Assembly: GCA_030614005.1 (NCBI GenBank)
Contig: JAUWKS010000003.1
Coordinates: 1,354 to 65,353, forward strand
From: Candidatus Heimdallarchaeota archaeon
GTDB lineage: Archaea > Asgardarchaeota > Heimdallarchaeia > JABLTI01
DNA: 64,000 bases
Reading direction: 5' to 3'
Shown here: positions 20,179 to 40,260 of the stretch, piece after piece
Layout: every line of letters starts with the position of its first letter
Numbering within the stretch: position 1 is the stretch's first letter
Translations under genes and position numbers: made by a program
The notes under the pieces: model-generated
What the model was told of the DNA's origin: nothing
Seen by the model: only the letters and a program-made list of their open reading frames with translations
Databases searched by the model: none

Positions 20179-21342
20179 TTAATCTTCAATTCTCATTAAG
20201 AGATCTTCATGATAGCTCGTAACCACTCTTATAAATCCATGAAGCTCTTTATCTAATTCAATATCTCCTGTATCTACTCGAAGGCGTTCTGTCTTCTCAA
20301 GTTTAGAAACTGTTGCAATTAGAATGATATTTTTTTTCCCAACTTTTCTGATGACTGCAGGAGATAATTGTTGATTACCACGACCAAAAATAAAACCTTG
20401 ATTCCCAATAACAGTAACAATAATTTTCGATTTGGAGTATTGTTCCAGTAATTCCAATAATTGTTTTTCATTTAGATCCTTTGCAATCAGTTTTCTATTA
20501 TAGAGTGCATCAATCCCTAGAAGCGTTTTTTCTAATTTAAGATAGTCTGCTACAGCTTTGCAAGTTGTTCCCGAACCTAAAATATAGAAAGTATCTCTAT
20601 CCATATCATCTGATATTCTTTCAGCAATAACCCTTTGGTCATGCTTTTCATCAAAGGTGGATGCTGAAGCCATTTTTCCTCCTTGAAAAGATGCTGTAAG
20701 ATAAGGTATCTTTACCATTCCTCTCAACTCTGCACTTACTCTACCAGCTCGAAATGCCTCTTCATCGATATCCATAACCTCTCTCTCAATTATATTGAGT
20801 TGCCCATTGTGGAATTGTTTGAAAATTTCACCTGCAATTTCAGGACTTAAAGCGAAGCAAGCACTGTGCATTTTAACTCCACTTGGCACTGCTAGTACAG
20901 GAATTTTATCCTTAATTGCTTCAAAAACATCGCATGCAGTTCCATCTCCACCAATGAAAATCAATAGATCAGCGTCTTTTTCAAGAATAAGTTTGGCTGC
21001 TTTTTTAGTATCTTCTCGAGATGGTTTTGTATCTTTAATTTTCCCAATAACTGAATGATTGAATCCCATTTCTGCTAAAACAGCTTCGCCCATCTCATCA
21101 TTAAAGCATAGAAAGGATGTGGCGTTTTTCAAATTTTCAATTGATTTAAGAAATCGTTTTGCGCGTTCATTTGAAACTTTCTTACCTTCACCATCTTCTA
21201 TTTTAGACCAAATAGCATCTGCATCATCGCTACCTTTGAAACCTATTCGACCACCAACTCCTGCAATTGGATTGATAATTAATCCAACTACTAGATTGCC
21301 TATCGCAGAAGATGCTGCTGCACTAATTTTTGTTGTATTCAT
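20179..21342 (-). CDS. ATP-NAD kinase / DAGK-catalytic-like family protein
   Basis: GGDGT motif (LLIFIGGDGTACDVFEAI) characteristic of the NAD-kinase/diacylglycerol-kinase catalytic fold, with a C-terminal extension; exact substrate unknown. Confidence 0.5.
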   Translation of the reverse strand: MNTTKISAAASSAIGNLVVGLIINPIAGVGGRIGFKGSDDADAIWSKIEDGEGKKVSNERAKRFLKSIENLKNATSFLCFNDEMGEAVLAEMGFNHSVIGKIKDTKPSREDTKKAAKLILEKDADLLIFIGGDGTACDVFEAIKDKIPVLAVPSGVKMHSACFALSPEIAGEIFKQFHNGQLNIIEREVMDIDEEAFRAGRVSAELRGMVKIPYLTASFQGGKMASASTFDEKHDQRVIAERISDDMDRDTFYILGSGTTCKAVADYLKLEKTLLGIDALYNRKLIAKDLNEKQLLELLEQYSKSKIIVTVIGNQGFIFGRGNQQLSPAVIRKVGKKNIILIATVSKLEKTERLRVDTGDIELDKELHGFIRVVTSYHEDLLMRIED

Positions 21343-21580
21343 TGATTTCTCACTTTCTCTATAATATGTTTCTCCATTAATTGTTTAGGATAAAAAATAT
21401 TCTATCAATTATATTTGATTTCTACCTTTTCTATAAGAACAATTAATATTTTTTGAATATTAAATAATTATGTTAATTCAAAGACGATTATGTTGCTTTT
21501 AAAAACGTCATATGCAAAATGTGCAAGTGATAAACAAAAAAGTAATAATACTCTAAAGTAATCTCTTATTTATAATAAAG

Positions 21581-23629
21581 GTGAGTATTGTGGAGTATCC
21601 TAAAACAAAACGCGAAGATATTATTGATACGATTCATGGGGAAAAAGTTCATGACCCATATCGCTGGCTTGAAGATTTTGACAACAATGATGTGCAAAAG
21701 TGGTTGGATGAACAACATAATTTAACTAAGAAAGTGTTGCAAGCAATTCCTAATAGAGATATAGCTTTGAAACGAATGACAGAACTATTTTCTTTGGGTT
21801 CAATTTCTGTTCCAATAAAACATAAAGACAGTACCTTTTTCTTTAGAAGAGAAACAGAGAAGCAAGCCATTTTATATTATCAGGATAAAGAAAAAAAACC
21901 TAGAGTTTTAATCAACCCAAATGAGCTTAGCGAAAAAAATCCTGTTGCATTAGATTGGTATTATGTTTCGCCTGAAACAAAATATCTTGTGTATGGTCTA
22001 TCAGAAAATGGTGACGAATGGAGTTTATTACAAATAAAAAATATTGAGACAGGTGAAATTTTAGCAGATAAAATACCAAGAACGCGCCACAGTAGTTTGG
22101 CTTGGTTGCCTGATGAATCTGGTTTTTATTATACAAGATTCCCTCAAATAGGATTTGTACCAGAAGGCCAAGAACATTATAATTGCCGAATCTATTATCA
22201 CAAAATAGGCACGGATTGGAAAGATGATCCAGTAATATTTGGTGAGGGACGAGCAGCAACAAATCATTATAGTATCCAAATATCAAAGGATGCCAAGTAT
22301 CTAATAATTACGGTCCAAAAATATACTAAAAACGATTTGTATCTTTTAAATCTAGAAACAATGGAACTTGAAGAAATAATTGCGAAGCAAGACTGTCTAT
22401 CAATGACCAAAGTGATTGATGATGAACTTTGGATTTTGACAAACAGAAACGCTCCGAGAAAGACATTATATAAAACAACTTTTGATAAACCTTCATTTGA
22501 GGATTGGGAGCTGGTCATTCCGGAAAGTGGCAATGTTATCTCTCAATTTCTCGTATCTAAAGAAAAAATATTCCTTTTGTCTATGAAAAATGCCTATGAT
22601 CACATAGTGCTCTATAATCATCAAGGACAATATTTGAAAGAACTAGAGATGCCAAAATATGTATCTATTGATGGCTTGGCTAAAAATCAAGAGAAGACAA
22701 AGAATGTTTCTGAATTTTTTGTTAAGGTTACTTCGTTCTTGCAACCAGGTTCAATTTATTCTTATAATATATTGCAAGATGAAATAACTCTCTATAACGA
22801 AATAAAACCACCCGTTGATCCTGAAGAATATACTGTCAAGCAGGTTTGGTATAAATCGAAAGATGATACAAAAGTTTCCATGTTTATTGTCCATAAGAAA
22901 AGTTTGAAACTTAATAGCAAGAATCCAACGCTACTGTGCGGTTACGGTGGTTTTAATATTGCTTTGAAACCTCCATATGTAAGAGAATCAAGATTCTATT
23001 GGATGGAACGAGGCGGGGTAATTGCCATAGCAAATCTTCGAGGTGGTTCTGAATATGGGGAAGAATGGCACAAAGGTGGAATGCTGAAGAATAAGCAAAA
23101 CGTATTCGATGATTTCATTTATGCTGGTCAATGGTTAATTGAAAACAAATATGCCTCCAATAAAACACTAGCTATTTTTGGAAGAAGCAATGGTGGTTTA
23201 CTAACTGGTGCTGCAGTAACTCAAAGGCCAGACTTGTTTAGTGCAGTGTATATCGGAGTGCCATTACTCGATATGATTAGATATCAACTTTTCAGCATAG
23301 CAAGATACTGGATTCCTGAATATGGTTCTTCGGAAGATCCAAAACAATTTGAATTCATTTACAAATATTCTCCCTATCATAACGTCAAAAAAGGAACAGA
23401 ATATCCTGCAACATATCTGGTTGCTGCAGCATCAGATAGTAGAGTTGATGTTAATCATGCAATGAAAATGACTGGTTATATGCAGTGGGCAAGCGCATCA
23501 AAAGAACCTATTCTATTATTTGTTGAAAGACAAGCTGGACATGGAATTGGGAAACCAATTGACAAAGTAGCCGAAGCAGAAGCAAATAAATTTACTTTTC
23601 TTGGATGGAAAACGGGGATGAAATTATAA
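21581..23629 (+). CDS. Prolyl oligopeptidase (S9A serine peptidase)
   Basis: N-terminal YPKTKRED...HGEKVHDPYRWLED matches the POP N-terminus; beta-propeller middle; catalytic GRSNGGLL (GxSxGG) and C-terminal Asp/His. The start could be GTG at 21581 or 21590. Confidence 0.8.
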   Translation: MSIVEYPKTKREDIIDTIHGEKVHDPYRWLEDFDNNDVQKWLDEQHNLTKKVLQAIPNRDIALKRMTELFSLGSISVPIKHKDSTFFFRRETEKQAILYYQDKEKKPRVLINPNELSEKNPVALDWYYVSPETKYLVYGLSENGDEWSLLQIKNIETGEILADKIPRTRHSSLAWLPDESGFYYTRFPQIGFVPEGQEHYNCRIYYHKIGTDWKDDPVIFGEGRAATNHYSIQISKDAKYLIITVQKYTKNDLYLLNLETMELEEIIAKQDCLSMTKVIDDELWILTNRNAPRKTLYKTTFDKPSFEDWELVIPESGNVISQFLVSKEKIFLLSMKNAYDHIVLYNHQGQYLKELEMPKYVSIDGLAKNQEKTKNVSEFFVKVTSFLQPGSIYSYNILQDEITLYNEIKPPVDPEEYTVKQVWYKSKDDTKVSMFIVHKKSLKLNSKNPTLLCGYGGFNIALKPPYVRESRFYWMERGGVIAIANLRGGSEYGEEWHKGGMLKNKQNVFDDFIYAGQWLIENKYASNKTLAIFGRSNGGLLTGAAVTQRPDLFSAVYIGVPLLDMIRYQLFSIARYWIPEYGSSEDPKQFEFIYKYSPYHNVKKGTEYPATYLVAAASDSRVDVNHAMKMTGYMQWASASKEPILLFVERQAGHGIGKPIDKVAEAEANKFTFLGWKTGMKL

Positions 23630-23652
23630 TTCAAGGATTGCTCTAAAATAAG

Positions 23653-24168
23653 GTGACTTTTTTGAGGATACATCTAGAACAAGGAGATATCACAAATATT
23701 CAAGCTGATGCCATTGTTAATGCAGCGAACAACGAACTTTGGATGGGTGCTGGTGTTGCAGGAGCCATTAAAAGAAAAGGTGGTACAGAAATAGAAAAAG
23801 ACGCAATGAGTAAAGGACCTATTGAACATGGTGGAGCTGTAGAATCAATTGCTGGTAAATTGAATGCTAAATATGTTATACACGCAGCTGGAATGAGAAG
23901 CGATGGTTACATCACCAAAGAAAGCTTGTCTAAATCAGTTGAAAACAGCTTATTTGTGGCAGAAAAATTAGCTCTACGTTCGATTGCTTTTCCCGCTATA
24001 GGTACGGGTGTTGCCGGATTTCCGGCAGAAGAGTGTGCAAAAATAATGCTAGATGTACTAACAAATTTCAAATATACAATTCTGGAAAAAGTTATTCTTG
24101 TTCTGTATAGTGATGAGATGTATTCACTCTTTCTAAAAGTTGCGGGAAACAAAGAAATTGAATTGTAA
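23653..24168 (+). CDS. Macro domain protein (ADP-ribose binding / O-acetyl-ADP-ribose deacetylase-like)
   Basis: QGDITNIQADAIVNAANNEL...GAGVAGAI and GTGVAGFP motifs; about 170 aa; start is GTG at 23653 or TTG at 23662. Confidence 0.7.
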   Translation: MTFLRIHLEQGDITNIQADAIVNAANNELWMGAGVAGAIKRKGGTEIEKDAMSKGPIEHGGAVESIAGKLNAKYVIHAAGMRSDGYITKESLSKSVENSLFVAEKLALRSIAFPAIGTGVAGFPAEECAKIMLDVLTNFKYTILEKVILVLYSDEMYSLFLKVAGNKEIEL

Positions 24169-24205
24169 CATAGGGTTACAATTCCTAATTCTCTTCTGAA
24201 GAATC

Positions 24206-26887
24206 TTAATCTTCAGGGGGTATTGAATCCTCTTCAGCTTGCGAAGTTTCTTCTAAAGCTTTTTGTGCTTTAGCTATATTATCTTCTTTATTATCTTCTT
24301 CCTTAGAAAATTCCATTTCACGTTCAACTAAAACATCTAGAATTTTAAGTGAAAGCGTTTGGCAATGATCAATAATTCGTTCTGCTTCTAAAGTATCAAC
24401 ATAGAGTTGTTCCTCAGAGCCTTTGATTAATGGAAGAATAATTGAATTCCAAATCCCTTTGGCTTCTGTGAAGAGTATTTGCGCATCAGTAGCAAATTCA
24501 GTTAATCCTTCTCGAGATGCTGTATCTAAGGTATGAGGAGTCATTTTTTTGTTTAATAAATCCTCTAATTCTTTTTCATACCCTAATAAAATAGTGATAG
24601 TCTTTTTCATTTCTTCTTTCTTTTGATCAATGACTGAAGGAGCTACTTCTTCTCTCTTCTTTGGAAGGTCAATTGTTAGCTCTTGAACTGGTTCCTCTGG
24701 TACCTCCGTTGGAATATCTGCTGCAAGCTCTGTTTCAGAAATAACCAATGTATCAGCATCCTCTTGACTTGATCTCATTGTCTCGTCAAATCGTTTCTTT
24801 GCTGCTACTTCGATATTATCTCGTTCAGTTTTCTCCCAGGACATTTTGCGACCTTTAGCCTCTTCACCAGCAAACAATTCTGATTCTTGTCGTTCTAATT
24901 CTTTTTTATGTGAAGACTTCTTAGGTCTGAACTGTCTAGCAACTAGAAATGAGAACGTTAAGAATAATGCAATTGTTGCTACGCAGATTATTACTATGAA
25001 CATAATTTGAGCGTAATCAATGGGTTCAGCGACGCTTGGGGGGAAAGACTCTGGATCTAAAGGATCAGTACCATAATTTACTTCAATACCATCATTAAAA
25101 CCATCCCCGTCGGTATCTGGATTTGTAGGGTCGGTCCAAATACGTGATTCAAAATCAGTTGTGAGACCATCCCCGTCTAGATCTAAATCAACGTTATCAG
25201 CAACAAGTGGATTTAACCCAAACTTAACTTCATACCCATCAGAGAGAGTGTCTCCATCCGAATCAAAATTAAGTGGATCAGTTTGATAATCATTAACTTC
25301 TTCTCCATCTAATAGAAAGTCACCATCTGTATCTGCTAGATGAGGATCCGTTCCTTCTTGATATTCTTCAAGATTTGTTAACCCATCTTCATCAGCATCA
25401 ACAGAAGCATCTGTGCTATTTGTTGGATTAAGATTTTCTAAGATTTCATAATCATCAGGCATACCATCGGAGTCTGTATCACTTAGCAGTGGATTTGTTC
25501 CGTAGATTAAAATTTCATTTCCATCTGAGATGGTATCTCCGTCTGTATCACTTAGTAGTGGATTAGTTCCATAAATTGCTTCATCTAAATCAGAAAGTCC
25601 GTCTCCGTCCGTATCGATGGAACCATAGACAATATATGCTTCTGTTGTAAGTTGGTATCGTTCTACATAGGCAATGTAATAACTACCAAACTTATCAATT
25701 GTGATTGATGGATCATGAGCGATACTAGAGGATGAGCTTATTCTTTTTTCTAAACCCCAATTATTAGCAGCATTTTTCTGTTTAAGATAGACTAGTGAAT
25801 CTCCGGAAATATCTGATTCAAATACAACAATACTATTACCTTTTTGATCTACAGCAATTCCGAAATCACTATCATCAACTGCATAGGAATGAATGGATGT
25901 TGGTGAAGACCAAGCACCTGCTGCAGCTTTTGCTTGAGCAGTAATGTAATAGATATTGTTGGTTGTTCCATTATCTCTGAAAATAACTTCGATATTTTTA
26001 CTATAATTGTTAAAGGCAATTACGGGGTCAATAGGCGAGTAAGCGACATTAGTGATTTTCTCTTCAGACGTCCAAACTGATCCGTTCTCTGAGTAGCAAT
26101 AATATAATTCTTGCTCACTTGCTCTGCTATCTGACCAGATTAAATGAAGCGTATCGTTGTTATCAACCGTTAAACCGAGCTGTGTTCCAGCAGCAATTTC
26201 TGCTCCGTTAGTAATTCGGATAATTGGTGTATCCCAAAGACCTGTTGTAGCATTATATTTTGTATAATAAAGATCTCCTAGAGCATTATCAGTTGTGTCT
26301 CTCCATACTAAATGTACCAAACCAACACTATCAGTTATTGTCATTGGATTTTCAGCATCACCACTGTTTGCTGTTAGACTAGTTTTTGCTCCAATAGTAA
26401 AATCATCTTCAACAATTCTTTCTTGCAACTCAAAATCATCCAGAGGAGCTTCATCCTCCTCAAACACAAAATGAATGGATCCGTTAAAATCTGGAGTAGG
26501 ATTGTAGCCACTTGGTAGTGCAGCTAACACAGTATCAATTACTAATGGATCTGACCAAGAACTGCTACTATTACCAATAGAGAAATAGATAGTACTTACT
26601 GGGCTTGTATCTGGATTGATAATATCGATCCATGAAACTCCTACCATTCCTGTTAAAGGACTATAGCTTACTCGAGAATGAGATGAATTTGTTCCTGTAT
26701 TAGAAATTCTTTCACCATCAGTAACAATGACTGCATTTGGATTGTATGTGACTGCTAATGGTTCTTCAAAATCTAAAGGACTAACTCCAATAGTATTTGG
26801 TGATTCATCAAACCCCTGAATAGCAATTGGTAGTACTAAACAAATAAACAAAACAAAAATAAAGGTAAGATAAGTTAACCTTTTCAT
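24206..26887 (-). CDS. Type-I membrane surface protein with an Asp-box-like beta-propeller, TSP3 calcium-binding repeats, one TM helix and a cytoplasmic helical tail of about 270 aa
   Basis: ATG at 26887 gives the signal peptide MKRLTYLTFIFVLFICLVLPIAIQG. Repeated ...LHLIW.D / ...W[ST]... blades, e.g. YYCYSENGSVWTSEE. Many DTDGDGLSD / DSDGDTLSDGYE (DxDxDGxxDxxE) repeats. TM IMFIVIICVATIALFLTFSFLV followed by RQFRPKK and a long charged tail. Confidence 0.6.
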   Translation of the reverse strand: MKRLTYLTFIFVLFICLVLPIAIQGFDESPNTIGVSPLDFEEPLAVTYNPNAVIVTDGERISNTGTNSSHSRVSYSPLTGMVGVSWIDIINPDTSPVSTIYFSIGNSSSSWSDPLVIDTVLAALPSGYNPTPDFNGSIHFVFEEDEAPLDDFELQERIVEDDFTIGAKTSLTANSGDAENPMTITDSVGLVHLVWRDTTDNALGDLYYTKYNATTGLWDTPIIRITNGAEIAAGTQLGLTVDNNDTLHLIWSDSRASEQELYYCYSENGSVWTSEEKITNVAYSPIDPVIAFNNYSKNIEVIFRDNGTTNNIYYITAQAKAAAGAWSSPTSIHSYAVDDSDFGIAVDQKGNSIVVFESDISGDSLVYLKQKNAANNWGLEKRISSSSSIAHDPSITIDKFGSYYIAYVERYQLTTEAYIVYGSIDTDGDGLSDLDEAIYGTNPLLSDTDGDTISDGNEILIYGTNPLLSDTDSDGMPDDYEILENLNPTNSTDASVDADEDGLTNLEEYQEGTDPHLADTDGDFLLDGEEVNDYQTDPLNFDSDGDTLSDGYEVKFGLNPLVADNVDLDLDGDGLTTDFESRIWTDPTNPDTDGDGFNDGIEVNYGTDPLDPESFPPSVAEPIDYAQIMFIVIICVATIALFLTFSFLVARQFRPKKSSHKKELERQESELFAGEEAKGRKMSWEKTERDNIEVAAKKRFDETMRSSQEDADTLVISETELAADIPTEVPEEPVQELTIDLPKKREEVAPSVIDQKKEEMKKTITILLGYEKELEDLLNKKMTPHTLDTASREGLTEFATDAQILFTEAKGIWNSIILPLIKGSEEQLYVDTLEAERIIDHCQTLSLKILDVLVEREMEFSKEEDNKEDNIAKAQKALEETSQAEEDSIPPED

Positions 26888-27153
26888 TCCAGCTAAAGTA
26901 ATTTTTGATGACACTTTTCAGACTTCCTACTCAGTTTAGTATTTAGACTATGGGAAAAAAAAGCTTTTTATAGTGAACATTAGAGGTAAAATGATAAGAT
27001 ATCAGTTTAGTAGCTAATTGATAGTGCAAAGCTATTTTCATTCCTAGTTAATTTAAAGAACGGAGTATAGGAAAACTTCTTAAAACAATTTCAAGGGTTG
27101 GAGAAATAGTTAATAAACACTTTGTTGTGCAAATAGAAAATAAGGTGCAAATA

Positions 27154-27654
27154 ATGGCTAATCAAGAAATTAAAGTACTCGTCGAAGGTGGAAAAGCATC
27201 TCCCGCACCACCATTAGGTCCAGCATTAGGACCAACTGGAGTAAATATCGGTCAAGTAATCAGTCAAATTAATCAACAAACCTCTAATTATAGAGGAATG
27301 AAGGTTCCTGTTACAATCACTATTAAACCAGACAGATCATTTGAGCTTAAAGTAGGTATACCAACAACAAGTGGTTTAGTACTAAAAGAAGCAAAATTAT
27401 CCAAAGGTGGACACGGTTCTACAGAGGAAACTCCAGAAGAACCTTTCATTGGTAACATTACCATGCAGCAAGTATTGAATATTGCTGATGTTAAAAGAGC
27501 AGGAAGTATTGCAACAACAACAAAAACCCTATGCAAAGAAATATTGGGTACTGTTTTAAGTGCAAAAGTTTCATGTGAAGGTAAAGATCCACGTGAAGTT
27601 CAAAAAGACATTGACAAAGGTGTCTATGACAAGCTCTTTGCTGGCAAAGAGTAA
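27154..27654 (+). CDS. rpl11: 50S ribosomal protein L11 (uL11)
   Basis: MANQEIKVLVEGGKASPAPPLGPALGPTGVNIGQV... is the canonical uL11 N-terminus. ATG at 27154 follows AGGTG at 27143-27147 (the ORF-track GTG start at 27127 is unlikely). Confidence 0.85.
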   Translation: MANQEIKVLVEGGKASPAPPLGPALGPTGVNIGQVISQINQQTSNYRGMKVPVTITIKPDRSFELKVGIPTTSGLVLKEAKLSKGGHGSTEETPEEPFIGNITMQQVLNIADVKRAGSIATTTKTLCKEILGTVLSAKVSCEGKDPREVQKDIDKGVYDKLFAGKE

Positions 27655-27704
27655 ATACTGACACCACCCATACTTTTATTTTTCAAAAGCTTTTGATTCT
27701 CTTA

Positions 27705-27730
27705 TTGAGCATAGTTTGTTTTATGCTCAA
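27705..27730. other. 8-bp perfect inverted repeat (TTGAGCAT...ATGCTCAA, 10-nt loop) downstream of rpl11, preceded by T-tracts
   Basis: Read directly; T-rich stretch at 27674-27684 then the hairpin; candidate terminator or regulatory hairpin. Confidence 0.3.
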
Positions 27731-27904
27731 AATGAGCTGAATAAAAATGAACATCCCAAATACAAATCTAGGCAGACGAATGGATAAAAACTCCATTCAC
27801 AAAACCTCTCTATTTGGGCACTTAAATAAAAAATCGGTTCTAATTAATTTAGAACTATCGAGAAAGAGGTGTAAAAAATTTCAAAACATCCCGGCCTGAA
27901 ATTC

Positions 27905-30025
27905 ATGTTCAAGCCAAAAAGTATAGCCGTTATCGGAGCCTCCGCAAAACCAGGGAAAATAGGTTATGAAATAATGGATAATATTCTCTCCTATGGTTAT
28001 AAAGGAGAACTGTATCCGATCAATCTAAAAGAAACAGAGATTTTAGGTAAAAAATGCTATAAAGCAATAGCAGACGTACCTGGTGAAATTGATTTTGTTA
28101 TAATCTCTATTCCAGCAAAATATGTTCCTGCTGTTTTCGAAGACTGTGGTAAAAAAGGTGTGAAATCTGCAGCAATAATTACAAGTGGTTTCGGTGAGGT
28201 TGGAGATCATGAAACTGAAAATCGTCTTGTTGAAATTGCTGAAAAGTATAATATGCCATTTATTGGTCCTAACATTTTTGGTATAGTATACGCTCCAGCA
28301 AATATCAATGCATCATTTGGTCCTGCAGATGTAAAACCAGGTAAATTGGCTTTCATTACGCAGAGCGGAGCATTAGGTATTGCACTTATGGGTTGGACAA
28401 TTACAAATAAAATTGGTCTCTCATCAATCATTAGCATTGGAAACAAAGCTCAAATTGGTGAAAGTGAACTTCTGGAGAGCTTTTTGAAAGATGATCCAAA
28501 TACAAAAGCAATTTTGCTATATGTTGAAGGTTTAATTGATGGCAGACAATCAATGAAAACATTCAAAGAAGTTGGCTTGAAGAAACCAATTATAGCATTA
28601 AAATCCGGACGATCAAAACGAGGAGCAGCTGCTGCTGCAAGTCACACAGGAAGTTTAGCTGGTGCAGATAACATTTATTCTGCAGCATTCAAACAATGTG
28701 GTGTTCTCAGAGCGATAGATGCTTCTGAAGCTTTTGACTGGGCCCGATGTATTACGAATAATCCTCGACCTAAAGGAAAGAATGTTGTTATCATTACTAA
28801 TGGTGGTGGAGTAGGCGTAATGGCAACTGATGCATGTGAGGACAATGATTTAGAACTTTACAACGATCAGGAAAAACTCAAAGAATTATTCTTCAAAACA
28901 GAGATTATGCCACCTTTTGGGTCCACAAAGAATCCCGTAGACATCACTGGTGGTGGTGGAGAATTAGCTTACAAAAAAGCAATTGAAGCGGCTTTCAATG
29001 CTAAAGAAATTCATTCTATTGTTGTTCTTTATTGTCAAACCGCAACGACAAATCCAGATTTGTTGGCTGATTATATTATTGAAGTTGTAAAGAAAAACAA
29101 CAACAAAAAACCATTTGTTATAGCAAATATAGGTGGAGAAGCAGTAGAAACCATGATTGACAAACTAAATGAAAATGACCTCTCCGCGTACGACCTGCCC
29201 GAAAAAGCTATTTCTTCATTGAGTGCACTATACAGATGGTCTGATTTCATAGACAGACACGAAAAACAAGGGAAAACTAAACCACTAAAATTACCAATTC
29301 CACAGATCAAAGCAATCATTGACAATATCAGAAAGGAAGGCAGAATTCAAATGCTCGAACATGAATCCAAACAAATTTTCAAATTGATTGGTTTAAATGT
29401 TCCTCCCTTCGCACTAGCACAAACCGTTGACGAAGCACAAAAATTTGCTCAAGAGGTTGGGTATCCAGTTGTTATGAAGATTGTTTCTGAAGATATTATC
29501 CATAAAAGTGATGCCGGAGGAGTAGTAGTTGGACCAAAAAATGCTCGAGAAGTTGATGAAGCATTTAACAAGATTTTAACAAATGCCAAAAACTACAAAG
29601 CAGACGCAAATATTCGTGGTGTATTCATCTCCCAAATGGTACCAAAAGCAACAGAAGTCATTGTAGGTGTAACTCGAGATCCAACCTTTGGACCAGTAGT
29701 AATGTTTGGTTTAGGTGGTATCTTCGTAGAAATAATGAAAGATGTTGTCTTCAGAGTTGCTCCATTCCCAAAGGACGAAGCAAGACATATGATAGATGAA
29801 ATAAAAAGCAAACCAATGCTCTATGGAGCTAGAGGAACAAAACCCGCAGATATTGATGCTTTAGTAGAAACCATCTATATAATTAGTCAGCTAGTATCTC
29901 AAGTGGATGATATTAAAGAATTAGACATCAACCCACTCTTTGCACTAGAAAAAGGCGCAAGTGCTGTCGATGCTCGAATTACTTTAACAGAGAAAATCTA
30001 TCCAAATGACATTCAAACAAAATGA
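27905..30025 (+). CDS. Acetyl-CoA synthetase (ADP-forming), fused alpha-beta subunits
   Basis: N-terminal CoA-binding domain (KSIAVIGASAKPGKIGY), succinyl-CoA-synthetase-like ligase-CoA domain, C-terminal ATP-grasp; 706 aa, typical of fused ACD. Confidence 0.75.
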   Translation: MFKPKSIAVIGASAKPGKIGYEIMDNILSYGYKGELYPINLKETEILGKKCYKAIADVPGEIDFVIISIPAKYVPAVFEDCGKKGVKSAAIITSGFGEVGDHETENRLVEIAEKYNMPFIGPNIFGIVYAPANINASFGPADVKPGKLAFITQSGALGIALMGWTITNKIGLSSIISIGNKAQIGESELLESFLKDDPNTKAILLYVEGLIDGRQSMKTFKEVGLKKPIIALKSGRSKRGAAAAASHTGSLAGADNIYSAAFKQCGVLRAIDASEAFDWARCITNNPRPKGKNVVIITNGGGVGVMATDACEDNDLELYNDQEKLKELFFKTEIMPPFGSTKNPVDITGGGGELAYKKAIEAAFNAKEIHSIVVLYCQTATTNPDLLADYIIEVVKKNNNKKPFVIANIGGEAVETMIDKLNENDLSAYDLPEKAISSLSALYRWSDFIDRHEKQGKTKPLKLPIPQIKAIIDNIRKEGRIQMLEHESKQIFKLIGLNVPPFALAQTVDEAQKFAQEVGYPVVMKIVSEDIIHKSDAGGVVVGPKNAREVDEAFNKILTNAKNYKADANIRGVFISQMVPKATEVIVGVTRDPTFGPVVMFGLGGIFVEIMKDVVFRVAPFPKDEARHMIDEIKSKPMLYGARGTKPADIDALVETIYIISQLVSQVDDIKELDINPLFALEKGASAVDARITLTEKIYPNDIQTK

Positions 30026-31934: not shown

Positions 31935-32895
31935 ATGTTACTTTGTTTTATAATTCCTCTATTTAGTTAAAATAGTATAACACCTCAACCAATGGTACAA
32001 AACGTTATCGGTGCATCATTGGAGTTAGAACAAAAGTGGAACTATACGACAAGTGGAATATCTGTAAGTGCAACACCAACACTGTTCGATTTATACGAAG
32101 ATGGAACAATGGACGTAATTTATGGAACTAATAAAGATGTGACTTGTCTTGATGACCAAGGAAATCTCAATTGGTCATATTACACTAATAGTGTAGTTAG
32201 GGGATCACTTGTTGTAGTTGACGTAGATAATGACTATAAACCAAACATTGTCGTTGGTGTTAGTGATAGTTTGCGATTTTTTGATTATGATGGTTCATAT
32301 ATGAGAAATACTGGAACTGGCTATATTATGGATGCCCCATCTATTGTTGATTTTGAAGGTGATGGAGAATGGGAATTCTTAGTACCAAGCTATCTATTCT
32401 ATGATGGTATTTACTGTATTAATAGTAATGGATCCATAAGATGGTCTTACACAGATATTTCATCACCTGGAACACCTGATAGAGTGTATGGTACTCCTAC
32501 TGCTTGTGATCTTAATGGAGATGGAGTAATTGAAGTTCTCTTTGGTTCATGGGATGGATATCTTTATTGTCTTAATGAAACTGGGCATTTCCAATGACAA
32601 TATTCTCGATGGAGAAGAAGTTATTGCTGGAGCAGATGGTTTTATTACCAATCCCAACAACGCGGATACCGATGGCGATGGTATCGATGATGACATAGAA
32701 ATTGGCAATGGCACCGATCCAACCGATTCTAGTGACCCACCCGTAGAGACTCCAACTCCTACCACCACTCCTACAAATACTACTCCTACAGGCGAAGGCT
32801 CATTCATTGGTGGTTTTGTTAGTTTAGGTATTGTTTTATCTACTGCCTTATTTATCATAGCTTCAGTAGAACGTCGAAAGAAATATTACAAATGA
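31935..32895 (+). pseudogene. Decayed paralog of the beta-propeller/TSP3 surface-protein family: in-frame stop near the N-terminus, +1 frameshift near 32580-32595, PGF-CTERM-like C-terminus
   Basis: ATG 31935 encodes hydrophobic MLLCFIIPLFS, then an in-frame TAA (31968-31970), then the ORF 31992..32597 (beta-propeller-like ...DGDGVIEVLFGSWDGYLYCLNETG). Frame 1 continues at 32530..32895 with TSP3 motifs (NADTDGDGIDDDIEIGNGTDPTD), a Thr/Pro linker, and GGF plus a hydrophobic helix plus ERRKK. Confidence 0.4.
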
Positions 32896-36996: not shown

Positions 36997-39900
36997 ATGC
37001 AATTGATGCACAAAAATAGGTACCCCCCGCAATTAGTATTAATTGGCAGTTTATTCATATTTTTAATGTTATTCAATTCAGCTGTAAATGCTATCGAAGT
37101 GGAAGTTGGCAGTGAGGTAGGAATGACAGCAATACCGCCACAAATGGGTGGGGACTCTTTTGAGACACAAGCAACGAAAATCAATGGTTATGATTGGGAA
37201 GATGAGGAGGTTTTTGAAACATTTGCTCCGCTAAATGATTTGAAAATAGCTCTTGATGGCGATGAAAACGTTCATGTGTTTTGGTCTGGTGTAGAAAATG
37301 GTGATTATTATCTATTCCATAAAATTAGATACAAAGTAAATGAAACTTGGAGTGAAAGAGAAAGTTTAGGTACAACCTCTTCTGAAACTGGTGCAGTATT
37401 AGATGTCCAGACAGATGATGCCGGTATAATCCATCTTACCTGGCAACAAAATTCAATAGTAAGATACAGACGTTACAATTATGGTATTTGGGAAAATCCA
37501 CAGGTTGTCAGTAGTGGTATACATCCAACTATTGATATTAGTACAACAAACGGTGCTCCAAATGTAATTTACAAAAGAAAAGTGGATAGTAGGTATATAG
37601 ATTATAATTATTATTTTACTGAATATAATACTTCTACTGAAATTTGGAATGCAGAACAAATCGCTATGGGTGACTATTCTCCAAATGGAGGGTCATCTTA
37701 TGCTTATTCACTTGTAAAAGATGGAGAATTTGACAAACCGTATATTTTTACAAGCTTTCTAGATAGCTATTGGTATTGGGATGATTCATCAGGTTATTGG
37801 GTTAGAAAAGTAGTTGATACAATCAACTATAAAATACTGAGTCGAGATAGCGAGACTTCAACTTTCTCTAATGATGGATTTGATATTGAAAGTGCAATAA
37901 GCGTTACTGTGCCAGTAGTAACAAAACCACTGCTAATCAATAGTCCATCTGATGGGTTATTTGCTTTTTATAATAAACCAAAAGATGATGGAACTTATGA
38001 GATTACCTATGCTAAAAAAGCTGGCTCTTACTGGAGCAATCCAATAACACTATCTGATAAAGCTGCTCTGAAGTGTGAAATGACCGCAGTAGTGGATCAA
38101 TTTGGAAAAATAACCCTTATTTGGAATTATGTACACCAAACAATGATAGAAGGACAACTAAGATCGTCCGCTGAATTATATATGAAAACATTTTCTCCAT
38201 ACACACAAACATGGTCAGATGATTTACCATTAAATACTATAGAAATGTATACTCACTTTCCATCAATGACTCAAGATACAGATGGTAATTTGTACTTGGT
38301 ATACATCGATATAAATATCACTGATTCATCAGAGAAGAAATTAATTTTTAGAAAAGGTTGGACAGATTCGGATGAAGATGGGTTAACAAATAATGTGGAA
38401 ACAGAGATACATGGAACTGACCCTTATGACCCCGATTGCGATGATGATCAAATGCTGGATGGAGAAGAAATAGCATTAGGTTTTGATCCTTTTAACCCCG
38501 ATGAAGATTCCGATGGAATGGCAGATGGGTATGAAGTGCACAATGATTTAGATCCTTATAGTGACGATTCCTTGGGTGATTATGACTCAGATAACTTGAC
38601 AAATATGGAAGAATTCTTAGCTGACACATTTGCTAATGATAACGATACTGACGATGACGAAGTGAGTGATTATAACGAGTTAAAGGTGTATTTCAGTAAC
38701 CCGAAAAACCCTGATTCAGACGAAGATGGATTAAGCGATGGAATAGAAATAAACATTGTTGGTTCTAATCCAAATTCTAATGATACTGACAATGATACTA
38801 TGTTAGATTATTATGAGTGGACTAATGAGTTGAATCTGACTCTAAATGATACTTTTGAAGATTTTGACGGAGATGGATTGTATAATATTTATGAATTCTT
38901 ATACAATATTAAGGCGAATAAAGCAGATACCGAGGGGGATGGTTTGGGTGATTATGAAGAAGTAATGATTTATTTCACTATACCAAATAAATTCGATACG
39001 GATGACGATGGACTTTGGGATGGTATTGAAGTATACACCTATGGGACAAACCCATTATTACCGGATACAGATAGTGACTTTTTGTTAGATAAAACAGAAA
39101 TTGATGCCGGTTTAAATCCCGTCGATAACGACACAGATAATGATTTAATGCTAGATGGTTATGAATATATTTTTGGTCTTGATTACTTTGATGATTCAGA
39201 TGCAAATTTGGATTATGATGGTGATACTCTTACAAATCTAGAAGAATCTTATTTATGGACAAATCCATTTGATGATGATTCTGATGGCGATAAAATAGTT
39301 GACAATTATGAGCTTGAATTAGGTAGTGATCCTGCAAAATATGATACCGACGACGACGGTTTAAACGATTATAATGAGATATTTGTAATTGGTTCTGATT
39401 TTGATAATAATGATACCGATAGCGATGGTTTGATAGATGGCGATGAAGTATTTATTTATCAATCAAATCCACTCATTGTTGATTCCGATGGTGACACTCT
39501 CGATGATGGTGATGAAGTATATATTTATCACACAAATCCTGCTTCTACAGACACCGATGGTGATCTTCTTGCTGATAATTTAGAGTTAGATAACAATTCA
39601 AATCCACTGGTCGTTGATACTGATTTAGATGGTATGGATGATTATTTTGAATGGCTCTATGGACTTGATCCCACAGAAGATGATTCACTAATTGATACCG
39701 ACCAAGATGGTGTGCCAAACTTCGAAGAGTATCTTCATAATACTAATCCTTTGGTTAATGATACAGATCTGGATGGCTTAACTGATTTCGATGAAATTTA
39801 TGTTTATTATACTGCTCCTGATTCCAACGATACCGATGAAGACTCTCTTGCAGACTACGATGAAATAATGGTTTATGGAACATCCCCTCATGATCCAGAC

Positions 39901-40260
39901 AGCGATGACGATGGCATTTTAGATGGAGAAGAAGTTAGGATTGGTACTGATCCCACAGAAATTGATTCTGATAAGGATGGTGTTTCCGATGGTCAAGAGC
40001 TTTTAGATGGAACAGATCCCACTGACTTCTATGACAACAAAGATATCAGACGCTCGCGCTTACTGATCGTCACCTTTTCTGTTATTGTTGGAGGCATTCT
40101 TGTGTATTATATTGGTCCCTTCCTTATCATAAAATTATCACGTAATGAAGAAACTAAATGGGTTCAAGAAGGACTTTTATGGCGAAAACGGAAAGGAACT
40201 GAAATCCTCGAAACGTCACCTCATTCTGAAGAAATTTCGGAATCGAATATGGAAGAATAA
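36997..40260 (+). CDS. Large type-I membrane surface protein with an Asp-box-like beta-propeller, about 25 TSP3 calcium-binding repeats, a C-terminal TM helix and a short cytoplasmic tail
   Basis: Signal peptide ([20 protein letters not shown]); W-containing blade motifs ([30 protein letters not shown]); TSP3 repeats from about residue 455 to 1010 ([36 protein letters not shown]...); [26 protein letters not shown]; tail of about 45 aa. Confidence 0.6.

Follow-up and report, generated by a model that had tools for sequence, protein, structure and literature searches.

Among described proteins, calcium-binding DxDxDGxxDxxE (TSP3) repeats are found in extracytoplasmic surface proteins such as CglD and MtsD of Myxococcus and the OmpA-TSP3 proteins, which are lipoproteins or outer-membrane proteins and in which the partner domains of the repeats are VWA and OmpA. 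CglD is named by NCBIfam as a gliding-motility lipoprotein and MtsD as a cell-cell cohesion protein. In thrombospondin and COMP, EGF repeats are followed by TSP type-3 repeats and then by a C-terminal lectin-like domain. Integrin alpha subunits combine an N-terminal seven-bladed FG-GAP propeller with Ca2+ binding, thigh and calf domains, a beta-subunit partner, a single-pass type-I topology, a conserved juxtamembrane motif (GFFKR) and a short tail. Other propellers, such as the PHL/PLL lectins and the GH145 and PL42 enzymes included in the BNR_4 family, recognize carbohydrates and are soluble, with neither TSP3 repeats nor a transmembrane helix or tail; the propellers of sialidases are six-bladed. 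Asgard archaea are of interest for traces of eukaryote-like cell biology, such as contacts between the cells and their syntrophic partners and the coupling of membrane and cytoskeleton. To our knowledge, almost nothing has been reported about their surface proteins, and the literature on Asgard TSP3 proteins, adhesion and surface receptors yielded no description of the family presented here.

The gene was identified in a stretch of 64,000 nucleotides of heimdallarchaeal DNA, the whole of which is referred to as the window, and is a genuine open reading frame of 902 amino acids counted from a GTG start (Table 1). As the orthologue P0004 has a methionine aligned with this GTG, either the GTG or an in-frame ATG is a possible start; residue numbers given here are those of the 893-aa version that begins at the ATG, and 9 must be added for the 902-aa numbering. 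Full-length orthologues number 23, with identities of 44–86%, and all family members derive from Heimdallarchaeota-type MAGs representing 10 GTDB species. Purifying selection, as judged by dN/dS, acts on every domain. The gene is single copy and adjoins rpl11 in a housekeeping neighbourhood, whose order ACS–L11–gene–Macro–prolyl oligopeptidase is constant in all 13 loci examined. It is vertically inherited and confined to one Heimdallarchaeia clade, and the single-copy state and conserved synteny fit a core component of the envelope. The reading favoured here, to which a probability of roughly 45% is attached, is that the product acts as a Ca2+-stabilized, glycan-binding surface adhesin or envelope receptor whose tail serves as a non-enzymatic docking module. 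An Rfam scan of the whole window gave zero matches.

Table 1. Coordinates of the gene and of its predicted parts (residues in the 893-aa numbering).
Feature	Coordinates	Strand	Basis
Whole CDS	24206..26914	-	902 aa (GTG start at 26914) or 893 aa (ATG start at 26887); stop codon 24206-24208
N-terminal signal sequence, aa 1-25	26813..26887	-	KR n-region, hydrophobic core, ...AIQG/FD; hydropathy peak 2.63; putative cleavage
Extracellular beta-propeller, aa 53-424, seven predicted blades, motif xHxxWxD...GDLYY...W..P..I	25616..26731	-	AF2 model and blade segmentation
Eight TSP3 (DxDxDGxxDxxE) repeats, predicted to bind calcium, aa 425-612; 13 aa separate them from the membrane	25052..25615	-	Pfam TSP3_bac and motif positions
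Single transmembrane helix, aa 626-650	24938..25012	-	Hydropathy 2.86; AF2 helix 626-652
Conserved juxtamembrane region, aa 651-708: RQFRPKK and two charged helices (KELERxE...KGRKMSWE..ER)	24764..24937	-	Alignment and AF2
Disordered linker, acidic and Pro-rich, of variable sequence, aa 709-749	24641..24763	-	pLDDT <50; column identity 0.35
Cytoplasmic three-helix bundle specific to the family, its last helix extended, aa 750-887	24227..24640	-	pLDDT 90-97

Exactly two hydrophobic segments are present in the protein when a Kyte-Doolittle 19-aa window with a cutoff of >1.6 is applied: the signal sequence (aa 1–29) and a segment spanning aa 618–653, the core of which is the transmembrane helix. 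The helix is flanked by no Lys or Arg on its outer side and by six on its inner side (RQFRPKKSSHKKELE), and all nine N-x-S/T sequons lie in the ectodomain, with none in the tail; N212 is near-invariant and N244-x-T246 invariant among orthologues. By these sequence rules the product is a predicted single-pass type-I surface glycoprotein with a receptor-like layout and a probably cleaved signal peptide. The type-I topology proposed in the first-pass annotation is thus borne out by the signal sequence, the single helix and the charge asymmetry, and so is the basic stop-transfer sequence: the motif ARQFRPKK directly follows the helix and is conserved, with F653 and P655 invariant. The signal sequence is weakly conserved (column identity 0.33), and signal peptides are usually poorly conserved in sequence. 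In archaeosortase substrates (PGF-CTERM and related types), a sorting motif leads into a transmembrane helix after which only a few basic residues complete the chain; the present protein departs from this pattern in having 243 conserved residues past the helix, and none of the NCBIfam CTERM-type sorting signals matches it. Weak Pfam matches to 'Protocadherin' (four members; at best 6.9e-5 and 13 bits, the cutoff being 26) and to Plectrovirus transmembrane proteins were rejected as compositional matches on the helix and its basic flank. The two juxtamembrane helices were considered as in-plane amphipathic membrane helices, a proposal that was discarded because their hydrophobic moments are just 0.13–0.19.

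Conservation within the protein peaks in the TSP3 repeats, with a column identity of 0.74 and a dN/dS of 0.09. Pfam TSP3_bac (PF18884) matches them at 104.3 bits against a cutoff of 25 (E 2.6e-30), which places the protein in that family, and is matched in 23/23 family members. Their presence had been noticed at first pass, but the number given then, about 12, is too high: six strict DxDxDxxxDxxE motifs and two degenerate ones are found. The Asp and Glu residues of the motifs are invariant among orthologues and AlphaFold2 models the module with pLDDT >90. The NCBIfam models of CglD and MtsD also match via these repeats, at 60–68 bits, far under their cutoffs of 400–800. In contrast to the bacterial lipoproteins and outer-membrane proteins, the repeats here sit in an archaeal membrane protein of type-I topology that combines a propeller head with a long cytoplasmic tail.

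The region that precedes the repeats is predicted by AlphaFold2 to be all-beta (pLDDT ∼80–94), and the strand pattern and sequence repeats of the model point to seven blades. The repeated W-containing blades described earlier are confirmed by eight tryptophan positions of the blade motif (W86, 111, 195, 218, 251, 272, 326 and 377). The epithet 'Asp-box-like' is only loosely apt, as the protein contains no canonical Asp-box, [ST]xDxGxx[WFY]. In Foldseek, the propeller is closest in structure to the seven-bladed lectins PHL/PLL3 of Photorhabdus (E 3e-14, target TM 0.70–0.73), then to the PL42 lyase FoRham1 and BT3686-type GH145 enzymes (E 3e-13 to 3e-11) and to sialidases (E ∼1e-10). The lectins and the BNR_4-type GH145/PL42 propellers are thus the closest folds, with target-normalized TM values of 0.60–0.73 and 12–14% identity; across all structural neighbours, lectins and enzymes alike, identity is 8–14%. 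Pfam BNR_4 (PF15892) scores 26.9 bits, slightly under its gathering score of 27.3, and matches 15 of the 23 orthologues at E<=0.01 (best 2.5e-8), while NCBIfam beta_propeller_lectin (NF052348) reaches 23 bits against a cutoff of 200. A homologue search restricted to the propeller brought in two further sequences, a fragment from the family and a weakly matching BNR/sialidase-like protein (24% identity, E 1.8e-5).

The BNR_4 matches, the enzyme folds that score nearly as well as the lectins and the NCBI label 'exo-alpha-sialidase' borne by the distant paralogue P0049 could all be accommodated by a membrane-anchored extracellular carbohydrate-active enzyme, either a GH145-/PL42-like rhamnosidase or lyase or a sialidase-like hydrolase, with a tail that only positions or regulates it. 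Such an enzyme is rather unlikely, as non-catalytic lectins rank top structurally at these low identities and the hallmarks of GH33 and canonical BNR sialidases are missing: the sequence contains neither SxDxGxTW Asp-boxes nor an RIP motif (R[IL]P), and in place of the sialidase Arg triad R255 is the sole invariant arginine of the propeller and R304 is near-invariant. The modelled blade number, seven, also differs from the six of sialidases. The invariant polar residues of the propeller suggest a constant rather than a diversifying ligand.

The cytoplasmic tail encompasses 243 aa (651–893), not the 270 aa stated at first, and is helical in the AlphaFold2 model except for a disordered stretch of ∼40 aa. 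Its C-terminal domain, the three-helix bundle, has a dN/dS of 0.10–0.15 and a column identity of 0.68, compared with 0.63 for the propeller. The tail carries ∼17 invariant or near-invariant polar residues, and many invariant polar surface residues of the bundle are situated on helix 2, the helix 2–3 loop and helix 3. The objection that the tail might be low-complexity disorder, raised in the first-pass annotation itself, falls away, since this domain is conserved like the propeller across 23 orthologues and is predicted to be folded with pLDDT >90.

Comparisons with known proteins place the bundle in no described family. A tail profile run against 1.84 billion protein representatives retrieved family members only, apart from P0141, a repetitive bacterial adhesin rejected as a false positive. 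Pfam gave scattered single-member noise (E<=10 with one tail, E<=5 with 16 tails), NCBIfam, PADLOC and PHROGs gave no match, and a PDB profile search returned ovotransferrin only, at an E of 0.5, which was dismissed as spurious. No structure was matched in Foldseek at E<=1e-3. Identities to BAG, the PhoU repeat, the Not5/CNOT3 N-terminal domain, syntaxin Habc, spectrin/plakin repeats and GAT amount to 6–15%, and no named three-helix bundle stands out over the others or over de novo designed bundles; for PhoU, BAG, syntaxin Habc and spectrin no sequence-profile match accompanies the fold. We know of no case in which any of these six domains is attached C-terminally to the transmembrane helix of a surface protein. 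The modelled tail fold is a generic three-helix bundle without a specific homologue. Because the fold is generic and the Pfam and PDB profile searches disclosed no known signalling, cytoskeleton-binding or catalytic domain, the signalling or anchoring role proposed earlier for the tail is conjecture.

A true transmembrane signalling receptor would operate either by regulated proteolysis that frees the tail or through a PhoU-like, metal-binding regulatory bundle, for which the invariant pairs E793xxxE797 and E836xxxD840 could be invoked. This is very unlikely: the Pfam families PhoU and PhoU_div match 0 of 16 tails, no PDB sequence match exists for the tail, and the scores of BAG, Not5, spectrin and syntaxin bundles are just as good. 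The tail is also unlikely to bind DNA, as it is strongly acidic (net charge −24), and a search of the gene neighbourhoods for a partner, protease or response gene found none nearby.

According to the favoured adhesin or envelope-receptor reading, the propeller, of BNR_4/PLL-lectin type, would most likely bind a conserved carbohydrate, which may be one of the cell's own surface glycans, a glycan of a partner or a polysaccharide. It would be mounted on the compact module of Ca2+-binding repeats right above the membrane, from where the chain would cross the membrane as a single helix and enter the cytoplasm with the invariant ARQFRP motif. There, the two charged helices and the flexible acidic linker would tether the bundle, and the tail may physically couple the surface protein to a cytoplasmic partner or to other copies of itself. 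As a conserved single-copy type-I protein with a constrained, folded cytoplasmic domain that is unique to it, the family is a concrete and testable candidate for surface-to-interior coupling in Heimdallarchaeia.

The likeness to eukaryotic adhesion and signalling receptors remarked upon in the first-pass annotation is genuine as far as layout is concerned, but does not extend to homology. Analogously to integrin alpha, the protein has a predicted N-terminal seven-bladed propeller, putative Ca2+-binding repeats, one type-I helix and a conserved juxtamembrane motif, ARQFRPKK in place of GFFKR. In contrast to integrin alpha, its propeller is BNR-like, thigh and calf domains are lacking, no beta partner is known and the tail is long and folded. 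A homologue of integrin alpha, sortilin/VPS10 or thrombospondin, that is, a eukaryotic signature protein, is extremely unlikely and this reading is already largely refuted: layout is all that speaks for it, whereas Pfam detects no FG-GAP, VPS10, thrombospondin C-terminal or EGF domain even at E<=1. The FG-GAP hallmark of integrin alpha is thus missing, and so are those of thrombospondin and COMP, as the repeats are recognized solely by the bacterial TSP3 model and are followed by a transmembrane helix instead of TSP_C. Bacterial and archaeal proteins with such repeats number in the thousands. The tail, for its part, has no relatives outside the family among the 1.84 billion representatives searched, and there is no detectable shared ancestry with eukaryotic receptors.

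The propeller–TSP3–transmembrane layout of the ectodomain is repeated by a paralogue of 1087 aa in the same window (36997..40260). Together with P0037, P0042, P0049 and P0051 it belongs to a set of Asgard paralogues of ∼1100 aa, which have a signal peptide, a W-rich propeller, TSP3 repeats and a C-terminal transmembrane helix in common with the present protein, and to which its last propeller blades and TSP3 repeats can be aligned. These paralogues differ in having ∼25 TSP3 repeats and a tail of ∼50 aa, with the motif EExKWVxxGxxWRKRK and without the three-helix bundle. The short tail of the neighbouring paralogue, the restriction of sequons to the ectodomain and the core single-copy gene beside rpl11 would suit a purely structural building block of a non-crystalline Asgard surface layer, with a tail that provides internal anchorage or lateral oligomerization and transfers no information. 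The cell surface of the cultured Asgard archaeon Ca. L. ossiferum bears complex structures and lacks an S-layer (PMC12993045). A structural block of this sort is nonetheless improbable: a passive anchor would have no need of so many constrained polar residues on a folded, flexibly linked domain, and ∼50 aa suffice to anchor the paralogues. Should the tail turn out to anchor passively, or the propeller to be just an ordinary glycosidase, the family would merely be another lineage-specific envelope protein.

A bolder proposal, which we regard as decidedly unlikely, is that of a Heimdallarchaeia-specific outside-in linkage receptor, in which binding of glycans or cell contacts by the propeller would be coupled, by mechanical or conformational means, via the transmembrane helix and ARQFRP, to the family-specific bundle, which would recruit the Asgard actin cytoskeleton or the ESCRT/small-GTPase machinery. 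The protein would then be one of a wider class of archaeal TSP3-stalk receptors with swappable cytoplasmic modules, such as zinc ribbons, alpha/beta modules and helical bundles. If true, integrin- or dystroglycan-type adhesion receptors would have a prokaryotic analogue that arose independently, in an organism related to the ancestor of eukaryotes, and TSP3-stalk receptors with exchangeable modules would constitute a class so far unrecognized. Five other TSP3 proteins have tails that seemed by eye to resemble Roadblock/LC7; this idea was dropped, as Pfam lent it no support. A long tail on a TSP3 protein, described at first pass as unusual, is uncommon but not unique: the repeats are followed by a transmembrane helix in 26 of 96 other TSP3 matches, and in 10 of these 26 at least 130 aa extend past the helix, forming different modules.

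The open reading frame of the surface protein is uninterrupted and encodes 902 amino acids when counted from the GTG at 26914, or 893, beginning MKRLTYLTF, from an in-frame ATG at 26887. Both starts are possible because the orthologue P0004 has a methionine at the GTG position; as other orthologues possess basic n-regions of 10–20 amino acids, the longer form may be the real product. Residues are numbered here from the ATG, nine lower than in the first-pass annotation, whose layout of signal peptide, propeller, TSP3 repeats, transmembrane (TM) helix and cytoplasmic region was confirmed with corrected numbers. Hydropathy analysis reveals exactly two hydrophobic segments, at residues 1–29 and 618–653 (core 626–650), and the membrane sits just 13 residues past the last TSP3 repeat. 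On its outer side the second segment is flanked by DPESFPPSVAEPIDY, which contains no lysine or arginine, and on its inner side by RQFRPKKSSHKKELE, which contains six; nine N-glycosylation sequons are found in the ectodomain (N212 nearly invariant, N244-x-T246 invariant) against none in the tail. By sequence rules, these features support an external N-terminal and an internal C-terminal part, the protein being probably type I or signal-anchored.

Coordinates of the surface protein, its regions and related features (genes in nucleotides of the window, regions in residues; models from AlphaFold2 with an alignment of 23 full-length orthologues)
Feature	Position	Description
Surface protein gene	24206..26914 (-)	
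Propeller	53–424	confident all-beta model
TSP3 module	425–612	confident model, pLDDT mostly >90
Strict DxDxDxxxDxxE motifs	425, 447, 470, 519, 542, 591	
Degenerate TSP3 motifs	~493–508, ~564–580	traced by invariant Asp/Glu columns
Juxtamembrane block	651–708	ARQFRPKK (F653, P655 invariant); KELERxE; KGRKMSWE..ER; two charged helices, pLDDT 70–84
Linker	709–749	variable, acidic, Pro-rich; pLDDT <50; column identity 0.35
Three-helix bundle	750–858	antiparallel; pLDDT 90–97
Extension of last helix	to 887	conserved, reaching past bundle
Syntenic block	20179..30025	ACS, rpL11, gene, Macro, prolyl oligopeptidase
Paralogue	36997..40260 (+)	1087 aa; signal peptide, W-rich propeller, ~25 TSP3 repeats, TM helix; tail only ~50 aa, motif-bearing
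Short ORF	31992..32597 (+)	201 aa; FG-GAP_3 and lambda-carrageenase-type beta-propeller Pfam matches
Post-TM module of P0028, P0075, P0084, P0111, P0116		conserved, alpha/beta-looking; no Pfam match
Double zinc ribbons of P0038		DZR 27.7 bits (GA 27.3)
Helical tails of other long-tailed TSP3 proteins among the ten		

The Pfam family BNR_4 matches 15 of the 23 orthologues and scores 26.9 bits on the surface protein itself, slightly below the 27.3 cutoff. The strand pattern of the model and a sequence repeat (xHxxWxD ... GDLYY ... W..P..I) point to seven blades. The best Foldseek matches in the PDB, all at 8–14% identity, are the seven-bladed Photorhabdus lectins PHL/PLL3 (E 3e-14, target-normalised TM 0.70–0.73), followed by PL42 rhamnose-glucuronate lyase and GH145 enzymes (E 3e-13 to 3e-11) and then by six-bladed sialidases (E about 1e-10). 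Membership of the sialidases fails, as the propeller sequence lacks both the canonical Asp-box and the RIP motif; the earlier term 'Asp-box-like' holds only loosely. The TSP3 repeats are real (TSP3_bac, 104 bits, cutoff 25) and number eight, six strict and two degenerate, instead of the twelve or so first counted. We favour, at a probability of roughly 45%, a Ca2+-stabilised, glycan-binding adhesin or receptor of the envelope: the propeller and TSP3 ectodomain would bind glycans, and the cytoplasmic bundle, on its flexible linker, would dock a partner or self-associate. The second-ranked matches are those that a membrane-anchored GH145/PL42-like enzyme would produce; they stand behind the lectins, and this reading is considered unlikely. 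According to a review (PMC12993045), Ca. L. ossiferum, an Asgard archaeon in culture, displays complex surface structures and no S-layer, which makes propeller–TSP3 surface proteins plausible envelope components; no link connects this family to those structures.

Beyond the TM helix the tail extends for 243 residues, shorter than the 270 first proposed, and comprises four parts. Column identity is slightly higher in the bundle (0.68) than in the propeller (0.63). Against two close orthologues, dN/dS is 0.10–0.15 for the bundle, 0.09–0.19 for the propeller, 0.09 for TSP3 and 0.20–0.34 for the linker. With such conservation and fold confidence, the tail is not unconserved disorder; nor does the predicted TM segment look like a buried helix. 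These are the two outcomes that the first-pass annotation had set against its own proposal. Some 17 polar residues, invariant or nearly so, map to helix 2, to the first half of helix 3 and to the loop between these helices (ILPLIKGxEE), a pattern that suggests a binding surface; no amphipathicity was found in the juxtamembrane helices. An alternative in which the protein serves only as a structural part of the envelope, passively anchored by its tail, would suit the envelope setting and has to be weighed against this constrained bundle; we regard it as improbable. In the orthologue P0024 (L003 6001..8727) the protein stops early within helix 3 (...KAMSDKIL) and a 55-aa ORF follows, likely a frameshift or assembly error rather than natural truncation.

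No credible homologue of the tail was detected in Pfam, NCBIfam, PADLOC, PHROGs or a PDB profile search, nor any Foldseek match to its structure at E<=1e-3; the predicted fold is a generic three-helix bundle. Among 1.84 billion cluster representatives the tail profile found 14 true matches: the full-length ones (874–961 aa) all carry the identical architecture and the remainder are fragments. By these searches the domain is exclusive to the surface-protein family, with no eukaryotic relative. The first-pass interpretation is partly supported: a receptor-like layout and a functional tail hold, but any eukaryotic affinity and the coupling to signalling or cytoskeleton are unsupported. Homology to eukaryotic receptors, suggested by the layout, is essentially refuted; that the protein is a genuine signalling receptor, with a PhoU-like tail or one released by proteolysis, for instance, seems very improbable. 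The surface protein is best described as an archaeal propeller–TSP3 protein with a novel cytoplasmic domain.

The long tail had been deemed unusual for a TSP3 protein: it is uncommon but not unique, as 10 of the 26 TSP3 proteins with a TM-like segment after the repeats (among 96 other matches) continue for 130–295 residues, with differing modules. The distinctive trait is instead the conserved, family-exclusive bundle. Five of these proteins (1239–1522 aa) share a module of ~130 residues (FRNWRKDI..GLSDLGG.PMF.IPE...LSGIH.LTSEI...WV.LKK.YPRL) that looked Roadblock/LC7-like by eye. In P0038, P0096 and P0105, the last labelled Hodarchaeota, the stretch beyond the TM helix (188–295 residues) terminates in Cys-rich motifs resembling zinc ribbons (P0038 also with weak RING-like Pfam matches, P0105 with sub-threshold ones, P0096 as judged by eye), a pattern hinting that archaeal TSP3-stalk proteins form a modular class whose cytoplasmic domains vary. 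The family of the 1087-aa paralogue recurs in other Asgard MAGs (P0037, P0042, P0049, P0051); P0049 is labelled 'exo-alpha-sialidase'. The 201-aa ORF is too short to encode a full propeller and could represent either a fragment or a small propeller protein that is secreted.

The gene order is kept in 13/13 flanked loci (L001–L013), even where surface protein identity drops to 44–55%, and the loci inspected in more depth continue with NAD kinase and GcvP. Transcription diverges from rpl11 and converges on the macro-domain gene, which makes the surface-protein gene monocistronic. The wider neighbourhood is housekeeping (beta-CASP-like hydrolase, tRNA deacylase, PfkB kinase, OTCase, FtsY, prefoldin, eIF6), and no candidate partner gene was seen in the surroundings. 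Compared with identities of 73–81% for L11/ACS, 64–70% for Macro and 56–63% for prolyl oligopeptidase, the surface protein evolves faster than L11/ACS and somewhat faster than the other two. The gene occurs in ten of 185,579 GTDB species genomes: eight labelled Heimdallarchaeota, one Promethearchaeati and one Bathyarchaeia. The Promethearchaeati genome, whose accession prefix JABLTI01 doubles as a Heimdallarchaeia order name, may belong to that order. Full-length orthologues are labelled Heimdallarchaeota, 'Asgard group' or otherwise, the other names being probably mislabelled. The Bathyarchaeia locus, L012 (DATKZI010000037.1), shows Heimdall-type synteny with L11 and ACS 73–79% identical; this label and that of the family member P0122 (HUU77152.1), 'candidate division Zixibacteria', probably reflect mistakes of binning or labelling in public records.
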